Positions 26,817 to 54,527 of a DNA stretch of 64,000 nt are shown piece by piece (the first letter of the stretch is position 1; every line of letters starts with the position of its first letter). The translations under genes and the position numbers were made by a program. Source of the DNA: a virus. The stretch is from positions 1 through 64,000 of the IMG/VR virus record IMGVR_UViG_3300021438_000010; one strand, 5' to 3'. The notes beneath the pieces were generated by a model. That model worked only from the letters and a program-made list of their open reading frames with translations. It was not told the origin of the DNA and ran no database searches.

Positions 26817-28385
26817 TCAGATTTCATGAATTTTATCAACAATAAAAGAGGCATCATTAGCATTAACAGATCCACAAAAGATTAAATTATTACCTTCATA
26901 TAGTACATATTTATACTTTTCACGTACTTTTGGAAAGATTATAACACTATCTAATATACAAGTATCATCTTCTATTGTTAAAAATGACATAACCTGCCCC
27001 TTTGAATCACCTTTAGTAATTGTATAATCTGATAATCTCTGTATGTTAGCTACTATGCACATATCCTTGCCCTTTTTGCCATTAACAATTTCTTTACATG
27101 TAGTGTTAGCGGCAGACGTATCGGAAATTTCAACCTTAGTCATAGTAACAGGACAGCCTAAAAATTTAATTTCTTGATCTACTATCCAGCTGGGGTCATC
27201 TTCCAAATCATAAGGTGGATTGATAAGCAGTTGTATTTCATTCTCTACGGCTTGTTTTCTGTCAGCTTTGCTAGTTCCTCCACCTTCCTTTTTTGTAGGT
27301 GCTAAATCTTTTAAACAGTCTATAAAAGTATCCCATTTTTTTAGTGGATAATTATTTAATATCCAAGTCTGTTCAGATTTAGTAAGAGTTCTGTATATCT
27401 CATAGTCATATAAGGCTTTATTTCTACTGATGCTTCCTTTAAAGTTTCTAAAAAAACCTATTGAAGATAAAGCTTTAAAAGCTGTAGAACTGATATTTGC
27501 ACCAATAAATAACAAAATTTCAAGCCAAGTAAACTTGTCAACACTTTTTCCTAAATCTTGTTCTGCAACTATAATAGTCTCAATCAATTTATCTCCCGTT
27601 GCACCAGTTAATGATTTTATATCTTTGATACCAAAGTATATTTTTCCATTCTTTATATTAAACTTACGATCAAAGTTCGTTAAGCTTGGGGTTCTTGTTT
27701 CAATATCAAATAATTTAGCTTCTGATATTAATTCATAAACTTCTTGATGAGGATCTTGCTTTTCATTGGCATAGTACAAATATGATAGAAAAAACTCTTT
27801 AGTATTGTGGGCCTTAAAGTATGCACTCCAATAGGAACATACTGCATATGAAACACTGTGAGATTTATTAAAAGCATACCGTGAAGATTTTTCAATCCAT
27901 CCGAAAATTTGTTCAGCCTCGTCCTTAGAAACGATTCCAACACGCTCTGCTCCTGCTATAAATGATTTCTTAACTTCGTTCATAAGATCGGCTTTCTTCT
28001 TTCCGATAGCTTTACGAAGAACGTCAGCCTCTTGCAAATTAAATCCAGCAATTTTTTCAGCTATACGCATTGATTGTTCTTGATATACAAGAACACCATA
28101 CGTTGGTTTTAATATATCCTCTAGTGCGGGATGTAAATAGGTTACTTCTTCCCTTCCATGCTTTCTGTCTACATAACGCTGGGTCATGCTTTTACCATCA
28201 ACGAAAGCTTTCAAAGTTCCCGGTCTAATGATAGCAATTAATGCAGAAAGTTCTTCTAAATTCGTTGGTGCTAATTTCTTAGACCAAGACTTCCCAAGAT
28301 TACTTTCTAATTGAAAAATACCCTTGGTTTTACCCTCTGCAAATAATTGCCATGTTGCTTTATCATTATAATCAATATCGATCAT
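26817..28385 (-). CDS. dnaE: DNA polymerase III alpha subunit, C-terminal half (fingers, HhH, OB fold)
   Basis: GIFQLES, IRPG, TYGVLVYQEQ, ADVLRKAIGKK, YAFNKSHS, MSFLTIEDDT. Confidence 0.93.
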   Translation of the reverse strand: MIDIDYNDKATWQLFAEGKTKGIFQLESNLGKSWSKKLAPTNLEELSALIAIIRPGTLKAFVDGKSMTQRYVDRKHGREEVTYLHPALEDILKPTYGVLVYQEQSMRIAEKIAGFNLQEADVLRKAIGKKKADLMNEVKKSFIAGAERVGIVSKDEAEQIFGWIEKSSRYAFNKSHSVSYAVCSYWSAYFKAHNTKEFFLSYLYYANEKQDPHQEVYELISEAKLFDIETRTPSLTNFDRKFNIKNGKIYFGIKDIKSLTGATGDKLIETIIVAEQDLGKSVDKFTWLEILLFIGANISSTAFKALSSIGFFRNFKGSISRNKALYDYEIYRTLTKSEQTWILNNYPLKKWDTFIDCLKDLAPTKKEGGGTSKADRKQAVENEIQLLINPPYDLEDDPSWIVDQEIKFLGCPVTMTKVEISDTSAANTTCKEIVNGKKGKDMCIVANIQRLSDYTITKGDSKGQVMSFLTIEDDTCILDSVIIFPKVREKYKYVLYEGNNLIFCGSVNANDASFIVDKIHEI

Positions 28386-29402: not shown

Positions 29403-29919
29403 GATAGTGCAATACTCCTAATCCTTTTTCTACCTTATGAATTCTAAATGGGTATCTGGAAAGATCTATTGTGGTTCCTTTAATGGAAAAATCATCAATA
29501 CATATGTAGATATCTTGTAAATTAAAAGACAATATTTTATCAAATTGATTTTTAGTTTCGGATGGATCTACACTTCCGTCTAGATAGTAGAGGTTGTATT
29601 CTGGAGTAATATAGTCTATTCCATCACCATAACAAAGATTAACATCGTAGCCTAGCTGGCTTGAAATTAAATTTGAGTGTGCTAAATGATCCAAGGATAT
29701 ATCTGCTATAGTAAATATTCCACCATTTTTCTTTATATAGTTACCAAATATTATGTCAGACCAACCAGAACCTATCCTAAATAAATAATTATCTAGTGTT
29801 TCTATGGCACCAATTTGAAAAATATTAATAGGCTTATTAGAAAAAGTATTCAATACATTTAAAAATACTTCATCCCTTGGACTAGATATATTTATTAACT
29901 CATTTATTTTGTCTATCAT
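29395..29919 (-). CDS. Class I SAM methyltransferase-like protein
   Basis: IFQIG, TIADI, YGDG, LYYLDG and CIDD pattern typical of Methyltransf_24-like proteins. Confidence 0.6.
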   Translation of the reverse strand: MIDKINELINISSPRDEVFLNVLNTFSNKPINIFQIGAIETLDNYLFRIGSGWSDIIFGNYIKKNGGIFTIADISLDHLAHSNLISSQLGYDVNLCYGDGIDYITPEYNLYYLDGSVDPSETKNQFDKILSFNLQDIYICIDDFSIKGTTIDLSRYPFRIHKVEKGLGVLHYHG

Positions 29920-31531
29920 TAATGATCTCCTCTATTTTCATTATTTTATCAAGAAGGTTTATACCAAGAACATCAAACTTTACATGACCCAAAGCCTCCA
30001 AATCCGACATTTCTAATCCAGCAATTTTTTCCGATGATCCTTTTTGTTTTACCATAGGACATACTTGTTGTAATGGTTCAGCAGATATAACAACACCAGC
30101 AGCATGTTTACCTTGAGTCTTAAATGTACCCTCTATTTGAATAGCCTGCTCAAAATATTCAGCATATTCTCCATCTAATTTGTTGTCTTCTGATAATCTA
30201 CAAAAGTCTCGTAATGCATCAGAATTATTTATTAATGCCCACTTTATAATAGATCTATCTTCATCATCCATTTCTGCTAATTGATCTGAAATTTTAGCTT
30301 CATCTGGAATGCAGTTACTGATAGCATTCATCTCTGCGAATGAACAAGCCTCATTTATACGCAATACTTCTTTTATGGCACTTTTTCCTTGTAGCCTACC
30401 AAAAGTTAACATTTGACTAACTCTTTCATGACCATACTTGTCTTTAATATATGAAATAATTTCATCACGTTTAGTACCGGGAACGTCCATGTCAATATCT
30501 GGTAAAGATATATGATCGGCAGTATTTCGCCCAGCATTATAAAATCGTGCAAACAGAAGATCAAACTCTATAGGATCAATCTTAGTAATACCAATTAAGT
30601 ATGAGATTAAACAACCTGCGGCAGACCCTCTACCGGGACCAGAAAGCCAGCCCATATCATTAACATGCTGTATAATATCACGAACAATTAAAAAATATCC
30701 GAATAGATTAGCACCTTTAATAACATCAAATTCTTCCTTGAATCTACTAAGATATTTCTGCTTATCTTCTTCTTTTGATACTTTGCCTTGATCTATTAAT
30801 ATTTTCTTCCAACCTATGCGACATAGTTCTTTAAGATAATCTTCTTCTGTCGCTCCTTTTGGACACTCAAATTTTGGAAGCATTGGCTTGCTAAGAATAT
30901 CGTAGTCTTCGCATTGGTCATAAATCTTTTTTAGTTTAGTTATATCTAAACCCTTGGTTTCTGTTTTGTCTTTTACATAGAAAGAATCGCTAGTAAAAAA
31001 ACTTAATTTATCTAGATGTTCCTTGGGATATTTATTTTCATCTACTAAAATATCTCCATCTAGGGCTTTATGCAAAGACTTCTTTATCTTTGGTAATGTT
31101 GTCTTCATCTCTGAACACAATAATATTCTATGAAGCTTTGCATCTTCACGATTAGTATAATAGCTGATAGGCATTGATTCGTCGGGAGCATTGAAGACAC
31201 TAATGAGATTTTTGCTAACCTCTAAGCTATCAAAATCTCTTGGTAATTTGCCATTTTCGTCCAATGCTGAAACCATCTCAATCAATTCATACCAACCTTC
31301 TTTGTTCTTAGCAAATAATGTAGTAGCATCAAAAGAGCATCCAATAATAGGCTTTATACCATGCTTTTTACAAGCCTTATAAAATGCTACTGCTCCAGAT
31401 AATGTCTTATAATCACAGATACCACATGCTGGATATCCATTTTCTTTACATTTTTTAGCCAATTCTTCTGGTTTTGAGTAACCTTTTAGCAAACTATAGT
31501 GAGTATAATTCTTCAACGGGAACCAATTCAT
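29900..31531 (-). CDS. dnaE: DNA polymerase III alpha subunit, N-terminal half (degenerate PHP + palm/thumb)
   Basis: THYSLL, KPIIG, GYFLIVRD, GPGRGSAAG, LLFARF, SLPDIDMD, KHAAGVVI, KFDVLG. Confidence 0.93.
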   Translation of the reverse strand: MNWFPLKNYTHYSLLKGYSKPEELAKKCKENGYPACGICDYKTLSGAVAFYKACKKHGIKPIIGCSFDATTLFAKNKEGWYELIEMVSALDENGKLPRDFDSLEVSKNLISVFNAPDESMPISYYTNREDAKLHRILLCSEMKTTLPKIKKSLHKALDGDILVDENKYPKEHLDKLSFFTSDSFYVKDKTETKGLDITKLKKIYDQCEDYDILSKPMLPKFECPKGATEEDYLKELCRIGWKKILIDQGKVSKEEDKQKYLSRFKEEFDVIKGANLFGYFLIVRDIIQHVNDMGWLSGPGRGSAAGCLISYLIGITKIDPIEFDLLFARFYNAGRNTADHISLPDIDMDVPGTKRDEIISYIKDKYGHERVSQMLTFGRLQGKSAIKEVLRINEACSFAEMNAISNCIPDEAKISDQLAEMDDEDRSIIKWALINNSDALRDFCRLSEDNKLDGEYAEYFEQAIQIEGTFKTQGKHAAGVVISAEPLQQVCPMVKQKGSSEKIAGLEMSDLEALGHVKFDVLGINLLDKIMKIEEIINDRQNK

Positions 31532-49306: not shown

Positions 49307-49621
49307 TTACCTCTTTAAATTAGTGGTCTTTGCATGAAATGGGCATACTGTTTTATGACCATCTCCTTGAACAATTATTCCTGTACCTTTGCAAACGCAT
49401 TTTGCGGGATCTGGATCAGTATCCACAACTGGCTGTGGTTTTGGATCTACTTTGAAAACCTCTTTCTCTGCGTTGTCAAAAGCTGTCTTACACTTTTCTT
49501 GCCACTCCGTTACGTAAGAAGAGTACATATTTGTTATATCTTCTGGATTAACAGAAAACATATTATTTGAGCATCCAGCAAAAATAACTAGAAATAAAAT
49601 TAATAATATTTTTGTTTTCAT
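49307..49621 (-). CDS. Lipoprotein with a C-terminal Cys/His motif
   Basis: MKTKILLILFLVIFAG-C lipobox; Pro-rich linker; CVCKGTG..DGH..CPFH. Confidence 0.65.
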   Translation of the reverse strand: MKTKILLILFLVIFAGCSNNMFSVNPEDITNMYSSYVTEWQEKCKTAFDNAEKEVFKVDPKPQPVVDTDPDPAKCVCKGTGIIVQGDGHKTVCPFHAKTTNLKR

Positions 49622-49631
49622 AACTAACACT

Positions 49632-49964
49632 TTATTCATTAGATTGTAAAATTGTTACACTACCATCTTCATTTAAATTATATGAACCAATTAGTTTATT
49701 GATTTCTACAATGTCTTCTGGACTTATTGAATTAATAAATTGACCAAGAGAATAATAAAATTCAAACACTTTTTTCGCATCTGTTCCTAATTGTTCTGAT
49801 ATTTTTGTCGCATTTACGCCATTAGGATTATTCCAAATATTTTGTATTCCATTTCTATAAACAGTTGTTATATGCTCAAAAGTCTGAGATGTTGTTTTTT
49901 TGAGAACTCTTGTTACTAATTCTGGCATATTATTGTATGTAATACTCATATATATATTCTCCAA
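49632..49964 (-). CDS. Hypothetical protein (follows the beta-helix protein)
   Basis: ORF directly downstream of the tailspike-like gene. Confidence 0.5.
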   Translation of the reverse strand: MENIYMSITYNNMPELVTRVLKKTTSQTFEHITTVYRNGIQNIWNNPNGVNATKISEQLGTDAKKVFEFYYSLGQFINSISPEDIVEINKLIGSYNLNEDGSVTILQSNE

Positions 49965-51535: not shown

Positions 51536-52453
51536 TTAAAATATGTCTTTTAAGGTCCAAGCTACTTTTCTTGGAGGAAAACCGTTTACATCACTATATA
51601 CCCAAGAGCCATTTTGTGCAAGCATTTCTGCCGCATCTCTTTCTCTAATCCAGAAACTGCCATCGGGTTGATCTAAACGTTTTTCACCATTGTTCCAAAC
51701 TCCCCAAGAGTTTTGGACTAAGAATAGTGTTTCATCATATATTTCATGGGTATCATCCATCGCTATCCAAGCCATAGCGTGGCCCCACGAACCAGATCGT
51801 GCTGCTATTCCATACTTATCTCTTCTAGAACTAAATCCAGAATTACTGCATACGCTAATGGAATAACCATTAAATAGTGCATCACGCGCTTGATCTATAG
51901 TATTGATCAAACTTATGGTTTTGACTTGATTTTTCTGAGCATACTTAATTAGTTCCTCTGGAACCCCAGAGCGTCCCCATTTACCACCAATTGCACTATA
52001 TTCTGAAAGATCATATTCACCATACTTCTTACGAAGTAGAATTCCACCCGTTTCATGAACGAATCGTGCAGCACCAGCACAAGTCATACCTTCGCCACCG
52101 TGTCCGCGTGAGCCATAGATGCCTTCCGTGGCACCACGGGCTACGAATTCTTCTCGTTCGCCATTTATAATCTCACAGCTACGTGTAATATCTACGCTAT
52201 TTCGCGTAGCATGTGACACACAGTCACCTTGAACCTGCCTTTCTGACGGTCCAAATGCTGGGTCAAACTTTAATAAGGATTTAAATGGAAGTGCTAATTT
52301 TCCTTTACCGCTTCCAGAAAGATCATGTGCTGCCACACCGAATAGTGGATGTGGCAGTTCTCCTAAGAGTTTATCTAACTCTTTTGGATCACAGTATGAT
52401 CCTACAAAGCCTTCTTTATAGGCTTTTAATAAATCTTTAGGTGTTTTAAACAT
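51536..52453 (-). CDS. Papain-like (C1 family) cysteine peptidase
   Basis: Oxyanion Gln and catalytic Cys in QVQGDCVSHA; His in WGHAM; Asn in QNSWG. Confidence 0.85.
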   Translation of the reverse strand: MFKTPKDLLKAYKEGFVGSYCDPKELDKLLGELPHPLFGVAAHDLSGSGKGKLALPFKSLLKFDPAFGPSERQVQGDCVSHATRNSVDITRSCEIINGEREEFVARGATEGIYGSRGHGGEGMTCAGAARFVHETGGILLRKKYGEYDLSEYSAIGGKWGRSGVPEELIKYAQKNQVKTISLINTIDQARDALFNGYSISVCSNSGFSSRRDKYGIAARSGSWGHAMAWIAMDDTHEIYDETLFLVQNSWGVWNNGEKRLDQPDGSFWIRERDAAEMLAQNGSWVYSDVNGFPPRKVAWTLKDIF

Positions 52454-52458
52454 TGTAA

Positions 52459-52683
52459 TTACTTTGTTGTGTTATCTTTAGCCCATTTAACAACAGTATT
52501 AATAACGACCACGGTAACTGGAACAACTAATGCTGTCATGCTGCCAAGGTCTAATTTTGTTAGATTTTCACCAACATATGTTAATAAGGCTGCTAAACCA
52601 ACTAAAGCTGCATTCTTGCCAACTGCAATTAAATCAGTTGTATTTAATGAAAATGCACCAGAACCACATTTGACTTCTGACAT
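52459..52683 (-). CDS. Holin-like small membrane protein
   Basis: 74 aa with two hydrophobic helices and a charged C-terminus (KWAKDNTTK). Confidence 0.55.
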   Translation of the reverse strand: MSEVKCGSGAFSLNTTDLIAVGKNAALVGLAALLTYVGENLTKLDLGSMTALVVPVTVVVINTVVKWAKDNTTK

Positions 52684-52684
52684 T

Positions 52685-53278
52685 TTATGTCTCCTTGAGT
52701 TGAGAAATGCTTACTAAAAATCCTCCATGCTCTTTATCGCTTATCCTATACGGAAATCCCATCATCTTGACTATCTTATCATCTACTGTTTTTACTATTT
52801 TGACTAGCTTTCTATTCATTTTTAAGCAAGATTTCAATTCATCAAAAAGATCTTCTCTATCTTCTTCTTTTATATAATTTAACCAATCATATCCTTCTAC
52901 GCTGTTAACAACATCTTGTGTTAATTCATAAAAGTTATTATTTGTCCAAGTTAGTCTACCGTGATCGTCTGTTTCAAATAAAGCCACATCATTATAATGT
53001 AAGGCAGCTTTCGTTCGTTGTTCTATTACCTTTTGTCTTTTTTCCATTCTATTAATGGTAGATCTTAAGTCTACAATAGCGTCTTTTAAGCTATTTCCAC
53101 CATTAGTTGTGAGTTCTTTTTTGATTGTTTCTAATGATTTACCAAGTTCTTCTTGTCCTTTTACGAAGTTTAATGTAGGTTTAATTGCTTTGACCCACAT
53201 TATGCTAAAAAATGTTCCTAAACCACCAACAATACTAAAAATAAAGGTGATATGTTCTGGATTTTTTATATCTAGCAT
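52685..53278 (-). CDS. Membrane-anchored coiled-coil + PAS domain protein
   Basis: N-terminal TM; ELTTNGGNSLKDAI; PAS pattern LFETDDHGRLTWTN..F.ELT....EGYDWLNYI.EEDR. Confidence 0.75.
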   Translation of the reverse strand: MLDIKNPEHITFIFSIVGGLGTFFSIMWVKAIKPTLNFVKGQEELGKSLETIKKELTTNGGNSLKDAIVDLRSTINRMEKRQKVIEQRTKAALHYNDVALFETDDHGRLTWTNNNFYELTQDVVNSVEGYDWLNYIKEEDREDLFDELKSCLKMNRKLVKIVKTVDDKIVKMMGFPYRISDKEHGGFLVSISQLKET

Positions 53279-53291
53279 ATGTGCCTCCGTA

Positions 53292-53340
53292 GAAAAAAGA
53301 AGGATAAAGTGCCTTAAGATTTCTCAAAAGGCACTTATCC
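53292..53340 (-). terminator. Rho-independent terminator
   Basis: Minus strand GGATAAGTGCCTT...AAGGCACTTTATCC followed by TTCTTTTTT. Confidence 0.75.
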
Positions 53341-54047: not shown

Positions 54048-54527
54048 TTAGCAGAATTTGTCCTTTATGTTATTAGCTAATTTATGTATTTTACGCCTGA
54101 CGCTTTCTCTATTTTTACCATGTTTTTCAGATATTTCTGATATAGTCATATTACTAATTCTGTCCTCAATCAATTTTTTGTCTTCTTCGTTTTTAAACTC
54201 ATCCATCAAATCTATCATCAAAAAATGATCTCTATCTGATGCAATATTACTATGTAATTTTCCTCCAAATTTATTTTTTTGATCAAACTTAATTTCTTTC
54301 ATGCATTCAATAAAAACACCTTTATATAAATACGTTGTAAACTTTGCACCCTTTGTTTCATCGTAGTTTACAAAAGTTTTCCACAGTGCATTCATCTGAC
54401 AAGTCCTAATTGAATCTGAATCTAATTGATTTCTAAATCGTCTAGAAGCCTTATTCATTATTTTTAATATATTGTCATCTTTCAATGCGTTTTCAATCTT
54501 TACGTTAATACAATCATTCATTTTCAA
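54048..54527 (-). CDS. Phage-encoded sigma70-family RNA polymerase sigma factor
   Basis: Region 2 ALWK...YDETKGAKFTTYLY; region 4 HTH MTISEISEKHGKNRESVRR. Confidence 0.8.
   Translation of the reverse strand: MKMNDCINVKIENALKDDNILKIMNKASRRFRNQLDSDSIRTCQMNALWKTFVNYDETKGAKFTTYLYKGVFIECMKEIKFDQKNKFGGKLHSNIASDRDHFLMIDLMDEFKNEEDKKLIEDRISNMTISEISEKHGKNRESVRRKIHKLANNIKDKFC

Follow-up and report, generated by a model that had tools for sequence, protein, structure and literature searches.

A 197-aa protein encoded by an uncultured phage of about 150 kb combines one transmembrane (TM) helix, a helical hairpin and a C-terminal PAS domain, and its gene is paired with that of a small two-TM protein in many related viruses. 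The N-terminal part of the protein is homologous to single-pass proteins found in the lysis cassettes of actinophages. We propose, at a probability of about 45%, that this lysis-cassette single-pass protein sets the time of membrane permeabilization jointly with the two-TM protein translated alongside it, under modulation by the PAS domain through sensing or controlled oligomerization.

Genomic setting of the PAS gene

The stretch of DNA analyzed here (the window) covers 64 kb from the start of an IMG/VR virus record of 98.6 kb (about 65% complete by estimate, GC about 33%). Close relatives are contigs of 145–167 kb, two of them with terminal repeats. The replication genes in the window encode a split DNA polymerase III alpha, DnaB and a ribonucleotide reductase (RNR). 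The polymerase is distributed over two minus-strand genes, a PHP-plus-NTPase gene and a finger-domain gene, at window positions 26817–28385 and 29900–31531, with three ORFs of 126, 226 and 174 aa between them.

The PAS gene is an ORF with an ATG start at positions 52685–53278 of the minus strand, and GGAGG lies 5 nt ahead of the ATG. A hairpin followed by a T-run is found at 53302–53340 on the same strand, between the upstream 204-aa gene and the ribosome-binding site (RBS) of the PAS gene. This terminator-like element has a dG of -21.1 kcal/mol (z -3.6), and 0 of 200 shuffled sequences folded as well. Its internal loop kept it from being detected by a simple consensus terminator scan. The PAS gene is probably the first of its own transcription unit or relies on read-through past the hairpin. 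Two genes upstream of it is a 159-aa ORF (54048–54527, minus strand) with weak matches to sigma-70 regions 2 and 4 and a match to PHROG 351 (RNA polymerase sigma factor, 1e-7). Its product is probably a phage late sigma factor.

A single-pass membrane protein with a PAS domain

The AF2 model of the protein, built on a 46-sequence family alignment (A1), has a mean pLDDT of 92.2 and consists of a helix (residues 7–56), a turn (57–63), a second helix (64–94) and the PAS core (99–193). The predicted TM helix, residues 10–32 (53183–53251, minus strand; Kyte-Doolittle maximum 1.79), is a hydrophobic stretch within the long first helix. The conserved signature TNGGNSLKD (residues 58–66; 53081–53107, minus strand) forms the turn between the two helices, which are predicted to be cytoplasmic. 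The PAS domain spans residues 95–193 or so (52700–52996, minus strand), and its core comprises five strands at residues 99–103, 109–112, 158–164, 169–178 and 184–193.

A Foldseek search of the PDB matched the model with a probability of 1.00 to the PAS domains of LOV, FixL, PpsR, NifL, ARNT and VqmA. By sequence, the window protein alone is sub-threshold against Pfam PAS (17.2 bits against a threshold of 22.6, E 0.005). Thirty-three of the 46 family members matched Pfam PAS (PF00989) at an E cut-off of 0.01, the best at 1e-13, and 32 of the 46 matched TIGR00229. A family profile search of the PDB also recovered PAS chains. According to the model and these matches, the PAS fold is genuine and the protein belongs to the PAS superfamily.

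Because the protein stops about four residues past the PAS core, it has no output domain. Neither HisKA nor HATPase was matched in the window protein or its 46 relatives. A sensor histidine kinase was considered and rejected, as the chain ends at residue 197 without a DHp or a catalytic ATP-binding domain. The first-pass annotation, made from the letters of the DNA alone, had described a TM helix, a coiled coil and a single PAS domain with no output domain. The ORF, the AF2 model and Foldseek agree with it on the TM helix, the PAS fold and the missing output domain. Its coiled coil stands in part: the helices are there, but a continuous coil through the motif is not, since NGGNSLKD is a turn between them in the model.

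The distribution of charges indicates how the protein would sit in the membrane. Across 206 family members, the mean number of K+R is 0.4 in the 15 residues before the TM helix versus 3.3 in the 15 residues after it, and the count after the helix is the higher one in 195 of the 206. By the positive-inside rule, the short N-terminus would therefore lie outside, with the hairpin and the PAS domain in the cytoplasm. The matched PAS domains are of the cytoplasmic type, in agreement with this N-out/C-in topology. We thus predict a bitopic inner-membrane protein with about nine residues outside, one TM helix and the remainder in the cytoplasm. An i-spanin of the Rz-like type, which is N-in/C-out with a periplasmic coiled coil, was rejected because the predicted orientation is the opposite one and the PAS type is cytoplasmic.

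Distribution and conservation of the PAS family

A word-indexed search returned 441 homologs, nearly all of 194–201 aa, on contigs of up to 162 kb. At E ≤ 1e-3, an exhaustive HMMER search returned 871 representative clusters (50% identity), of which 102 reached E ≤ 1e-10; nearly all are 180–230 aa long and share one architecture. With such numbers the PAS gene is real, far beyond chance. Among the 150 best of the 871 representatives, family size is almost always 160–240 aa and the architecture is mostly the same. Of the longer forms in this set, with 273, 358, 385 and 396 aa, the two longest were looked at (P0143, 385 aa; P0180, 396 aa). Both P0143 and P0180 have one TM helix and two tandem units of helix, NGG-type turn, helix and PAS domain. 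The motif and the PAS domain thus form a unit that can be duplicated as a module. A search limited to longer proteins recovered no fused relatives, a result that carries little weight.

Ten representatives checked for their source came from metagenomes only (JGI/IMG, ENA and Logan). A few closer homologs bear NCBI source tags, for example that of a "bacterium" MAG protein. Searches of 50,697 GenBank phages by blastn and tblastn, with the region and three family members as queries, gave no match. We take the PAS family to be confined to viruses, with no member in GenBank phages.

The consensus of the family motif is [PT]NGGxS[LIM][KR]D. In 125 representatives, the best-conserved positions of the motif region are E55, N59, G60, G61, S63, [LIM]64, [KR]65 and D66 (122 of 125), with N59, G61, S63 and D66 kept in 113–123 sequences. 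The best-conserved positions of the PAS domain in the same set are F101-E-T-D104, G107, W111, N113, W132, D140-R141, E147, R156 and G186. Of these, G107, W111, N113, W132, D140-R141 and R156 make up the structural set generic to PAS_3. Among the 125 representatives, no signature of a cofactor or ligand could be recognized, and no ligand can be inferred.

Individual cofactor types were considered as well. A FixL-type heme PAS was rejected, as the position of the proximal His, placed by transitive alignment, is L144 in the window protein and V, F, I or L in 119 of the 125 representatives. C151 was rejected as a redox thiol; its column holds A in 63, C in 43 and S in 16 of the 125. The LOV motif NCRFLQ is absent from the PAS protein, and in an alignment by eye the LOV reactive-Cys position falls on the near-invariant W132.

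N-terminal homology to actinophage lysis-cassette proteins

The region of the TM helix and the motif has relatives of its own. PHROG 9869 was matched by 25 of the 46 family members, and PHROGs 1009, 15431 (labelled holin) and 404 were also matched, always through this region. The window protein alone matched only PHROG 1009, at E 0.015. A permissive tblastn search, queried first with residues 1–90 of a relative and then with the match this gave, recovered PAS-less proteins in cultured actinophages and one uncultured virus. When the family alignment A1 was compared with six of these PAS-less proteins by hhalign, the probability was 97.7% and the E value 2.4e-12 over residues 6–73 of the window protein. 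All six have an N-terminal TM helix and the signature HELxPNxGxS[LM][KR]DA. The window protein carries the features of the PHROG 9869/15431-type single-pass module, namely TM helix, helix and PN(G/S)GxS[LM][KR]D...RIE.

The genes of the PAS-less homologs are found next to lysis genes. In the Thermobifida phage P1312, gp40 and the amidase endolysin gene (PHROG 1493, 2e-58) overlap at the start of the latter. In the Streptomyces phage mu1/6, gp52 comes after the endolysin gp50 and the holin gp51, and gp37 of TurkishDelight comes after the endolysin gp35 and the holin gp36. Arthrobacter phage Sonali has gp22 before lysin A, and the module protein of Dulem virus 32 lies ahead of a PHROG 1299 holin and near the integrase. 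The copy in a Glutamicibacter phage is the sole one of the six without an annotated lysis neighbor. Dulem virus 32 also encodes an unannotated 268-aa protein before the NGG-motif protein (L130:3024–3830, plus strand). By eye it shows an H..D...H pattern and is VanY/M15-like, and it is possibly the endolysin of that virus.

The actinophage proteins (mu1/6 gp52, TurkishDelight gp37, P1312 gp40 and Sonali gp22) share with the window protein a TM helix with a positive cytoplasmic side, a helix, the turn HEL-x-PN-x-G-x-S-[LM]-[KR]-D-A-[VI] and the RIE helix. Unlike the window protein, they lack a PAS domain at 91–184 aa, often contain RPGVP as a repeat rich in Pro and belong to phages that infect Gram-positive bacteria. 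In their layout they resemble the one-TMD N-out/C-in LysF1b class of mycobacteriophages (PMC13056207) and similar proteins of Gordonia phages (PMC9671378).

The NGGxSLxD motif had been likened to that of small membrane proteins of phage lysis cassettes, and the hhalign result and the gene context of the homologs bear this out. Judged by these sequence comparisons, the module appears to be a phage-specific single-pass class in lysis cassettes, made of a TM helix and a helical hairpin with an NGGxS[LIM][KR]D turn. The PAS family would then be this lysis-cassette module after the gain of a C-terminal PAS domain. Of the independent arguments that place the PAS protein in a lysis context, this homology is the strongest.

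Pairing with a 74-aa two-TM protein

The stop codon of the PAS gene (TAA, 52685–52687) is followed by one A and then by the ATG of a 74-aa ORF at 52683, and the RBS of the 74-aa gene (AAGGAG) lies within the last PAS codons. The 74-aa protein (52459–52683, minus strand) has hydrophobic segments at residues 18–34 and 49–65 and a short charged C-terminus. In its family, the N-terminus is hydrophilic and conserved, and the first hydrophobic segment is rich in Ala and Gly and flanked by K-N and E-N. A D-L-G turn leads to the second segment, which is strongly hydrophobic, and the chain closes with a short tail rich in K and D. The 74-aa family has no match among the Pfam or PHROG families, those of holins included. 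Its ESM-Atlas neighbors are named 'holin family', automatic names that we take as a lead only. Size, two TM segments and charged tail make the 74-aa protein holin-like.

Relatives of the locus were collected from both genes. A degenerate DNA pattern (motif plus ETD) retrieved 113 IMG/VR stretches; of a total of 129 sequences, which include L001–L015 and the window, 118 encode a family member, giving 84 distinct proteins. A homolog of the 74-aa protein is directly downstream in about 60 of the 84 distinct loci, its start lying -29 to +17 nt from the PAS stop. A search from the side of the 74-aa protein found the PAS gene directly upstream in 59 of 69 loci, or 23 of 30 clusters (80% identity). 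This synteny comes largely from one broad lineage of phages of about 150 kb, and independent events are therefore fewer than the counts suggest. The pair stays adjacent while the third gene varies between a papain-fold gene, RNR and others; RNR stands in place of the papain-fold gene in L019, L055, L075, L113 and L124. The first-pass annotation had pointed to the single nucleotide between the PAS gene and the holin-like ORF and had asked whether the linkage is kept in relatives. Both the junction and its conservation were confirmed.

The PAS gene is absent from the other 7 of the 30 clusters. We therefore see the PAS protein as an accessory, common but dispensable, to a core made of the 74-aa and papain-fold genes. 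In the cassette of L184 the slot contains no gene for a single-pass protein, which shows that the module can do without the PAS protein. In L179 and L186 the slot holds one-TM coiled-coil proteins that lack a PAS domain (105 and 129 aa, respectively), and for the 105-aa protein of L179 no homology was detectable. In L187, a TM-coil-PAS protein of 186 aa that has no NGG motif is encoded 1 kb upstream of the 74-aa homolog (L187:1910–2470, plus strand). Its best PDB matches are the heme PAS domains of 10jx (2e-7) and FixL (4e-3), with the FixL proximal His aligned. It is a candidate membrane-anchored O2/redox sensor. The FixL-like PAS in this cassette suggests that PAS domains were recruited to the module more than once.

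These cassettes bear on whether the PAS domain senses anything. The protein could be a membrane component of the lysis cassette in which the PAS domain serves for dimerization or as a scaffold only, with timing set by expression level, as in classical holin/antiholin pairs. The lack of cofactor-specific residues, the generic PAS_3 nature of the conserved positions, the PAS-less proteins in the slots of L179 and L186 and the actinophage homologs that do without the domain would all fit such a scaffold, but its constant length across hundreds of clusters would not, and the FixL-like heme-type PAS in an equivalent cassette points to sensing. We consider a purely structural PAS domain unlikely.

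Distant family members

Members with 25–35% identity occur in other surroundings. In L112 and L021 the distant member lies between the large terminase and portal genes. In L118 it is ahead of a hydrophilic protein of 75 aa and a terminase of the T7 type; in T7 itself, the holin and spanin genes are located in this region. In L015 and L035 it precedes lipoproteins, one of which is a weak Rz-like match, and in L054 it is beside a collagen-like gene. Since the 74-aa family is missing from such loci, the PAS protein has no strict need for it. A strict antiholin-only role is weakened by these members and by the seven clusters without the PAS gene.

The moron-like position of members such as the one in L112 raises another explanation, a membrane-anchored host modulator outside lysis that would act as a decoy for PAS kinases, in superinfection exclusion or in envelope remodeling. 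Many sensor kinases have a TM helix, a linker helix and a PAS domain as their N-terminal layout, there are weak PnpS/WalK-type NCBIfam matches, and the neighbors are often lipoproteins or OMP-like proteins. Against such a modulator, no close cellular relatives were found, and the nearest ESM-Atlas clusters of the PAS protein are 99–100% viral. The best representatives nearly all have the short architecture, none of those looked at has an output domain, and the N-terminal module is homologous to proteins in annotated holin/endolysin cassettes. We find a host modulator improbable. The specific idea of a dominant-negative decoy for host PAS kinases, which had been raised at first, gained no support from these viral clusters and this uniform architecture.

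The remaining genes of the run

The gene after the 74-aa gene encodes a 305-aa protein (51536–52453, minus strand) that is a candidate lytic enzyme. Its AF2 model (pLDDT 70.8) matched the papain-fold cysteine peptidases xylellain and cathepsin B/S in Foldseek with a probability of 1.00, and C78, H225 and N248-S-W-G are invariant in its family. The papain fold was recognized by the fold search only, as the sequence searches were empty: Pfam Peptidase_C1 was not matched, and the family profile (A6) found no PDB sequence. Homologs of the 305-aa protein follow the 74-aa gene in many relatives.

Past the papain-fold gene, the run continues with three membrane-anchored proteins and a lipobox lipoprotein of 110 aa (49307–49639, minus strand), and similar lipoproteins are found in L150, L184 and L196. 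The C-terminus of the 110-aa lipoprotein is Cys-rich (CxCKGTG...GDGH...CPFH) and looks like a DnaJ zinc finger by eye.

Searches with positive controls found no Phage_lysozyme, Amidase_2, Amidase_3, SLT, Peptidase_M15_4, M23 or NlpC/P60 in the record or in four relatives that are at least 94% complete. GH108, searched without a positive control, had no match in the four near-complete relatives, a negative that carries no weight. By its gene content, the run fits a non-canonical lysis module. A holin-like protein and a papain-fold peptidase without a recognizable muralytic enzyme may be an undescribed lysis route.

Proposed role in lysis timing

Our proposal draws on the PAS fold, the predicted LysF1b-like topology, the homology of the N-terminal module, the 1-nt coupling and the conserved pairing. 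The module of papain-fold, lipoprotein and TM proteins that lacks the seven muralytic families, and the FixL-like PAS in the L187 cassette, add to it. From these we infer a lysis role, a partnership with the 74-aa protein and possibly sensing. The PAS protein would be made together with the 74-aa protein through translational coupling. It would act on or with the 74-aa protein in the membrane and so set when the lesion forms, in the manner of an antiholin or a co-holin. The cytoplasmic PAS domain may bias the timing of lysis by a cytoplasmic cue or by its own oligomeric state. An antiholin or sensor role is plausible on this reading of the genes. The proposal is weakened by the lack of a holin family match for the 74-aa protein, by the absence of the PAS gene from the seven clusters and by the members in non-lysis positions in L112 and L054. 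The missing cofactor signature and the synteny from a single lineage weaken it further. A more specific form of it, in which the PAS domain reads the cytoplasmic state (redox, oxygen, energy charge or a metabolite) and passes this signal on to its holin-like partner by way of the NGGxSLKD hairpin, is doubtful.

In cluster F1 mycobacteriophages, LysF1b (one TMD, N-out/C-in) and the two-TMD LysF1a are both needed for normal lysis timing (PMC13056207). The pair described here is like LysF1b/LysF1a in its predicted layout: a protein with one TMD, oriented N-out/C-in and with its C-terminal domain in the cytoplasm, is encoded beside a small two-TMD protein. It differs in that the gene order is reversed and that the cytoplasmic part of LysF1b is a highly charged tail and not a folded sensor domain.

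The comparison suggests that the PAS protein itself could form the hole as a one-TMD N-out/C-in holin, with the 74-aa protein as a helper or an antiholin. In the F1 phages, which have the same topology and gene pairing, the one-TMD protein has the holin function (PMC13056207). PHROG 15431, which matches the module, is labelled 'holin', but the label is annotation only. Family members also exist without the 74-aa family, yet L184 has the 74-aa and papain-fold genes with no one-TM gene in the slot. We regard a hole-forming PAS protein as very unlikely and retain the reading that it times permeabilization together with the 74-aa protein.

In T4 lysis inhibition, the holin T is controlled by the antiholins RI, which is periplasmic, and RIII, which is cytoplasmic, and superinfection is sensed in the periplasm (PMC11413866, PMC8385771). 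The proposed system is like that of T4 in concept: besides the membrane components that time lysis, a further protein or domain would respond to a signal by holding back or allowing hole formation. There is no homology to the T4 proteins, and unlike theirs the putative input domain here is cytoplasmic and of the PAS type.

VqmA_Phage of vibriophage VP882 is a soluble protein with a DNA-binding output that acts as a transcriptional lysis-lysogeny switch (PMC8284805). Both it and the window protein are phage-encoded PAS proteins; VqmA reads a small-molecule signal, and the VqmA structures 6kju and 6ugl are among the Foldseek matches. In contrast to VqmA_Phage, the protein described here is membrane-anchored and has no output domain. 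Our literature search found no report of PAS proteins in lysis cassettes, and VqmA_Phage was the only phage PAS sensor found (PMC8284805).

Implications

Lysis timing sets the burst size and the fitness of a phage. To our knowledge, there are few systems in which a phage tunes lysis timing to a signal, namely the lysis inhibition of T4, N4 and ICP1. The PAS family is a large virus family that joins a canonical sensor fold to a module of holin/endolysin cassettes, and thereby offers a handle for signal-gated lysis. It also gives context to uncharacterized but widely conserved motif proteins of actinophages such as mu1/6 gp52 and TurkishDelight gp37. The PAS protein may let a phage time the bursting of its host by an internal signal. 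If the relay of a cytoplasmic state to the holin-like partner is true, thousands of uncultured phages would gate host lysis on host physiology, and T4 lysis inhibition would have a counterpart that responds to a cytoplasmic signal and is derived from a module common to actinophage lysis cassettes.
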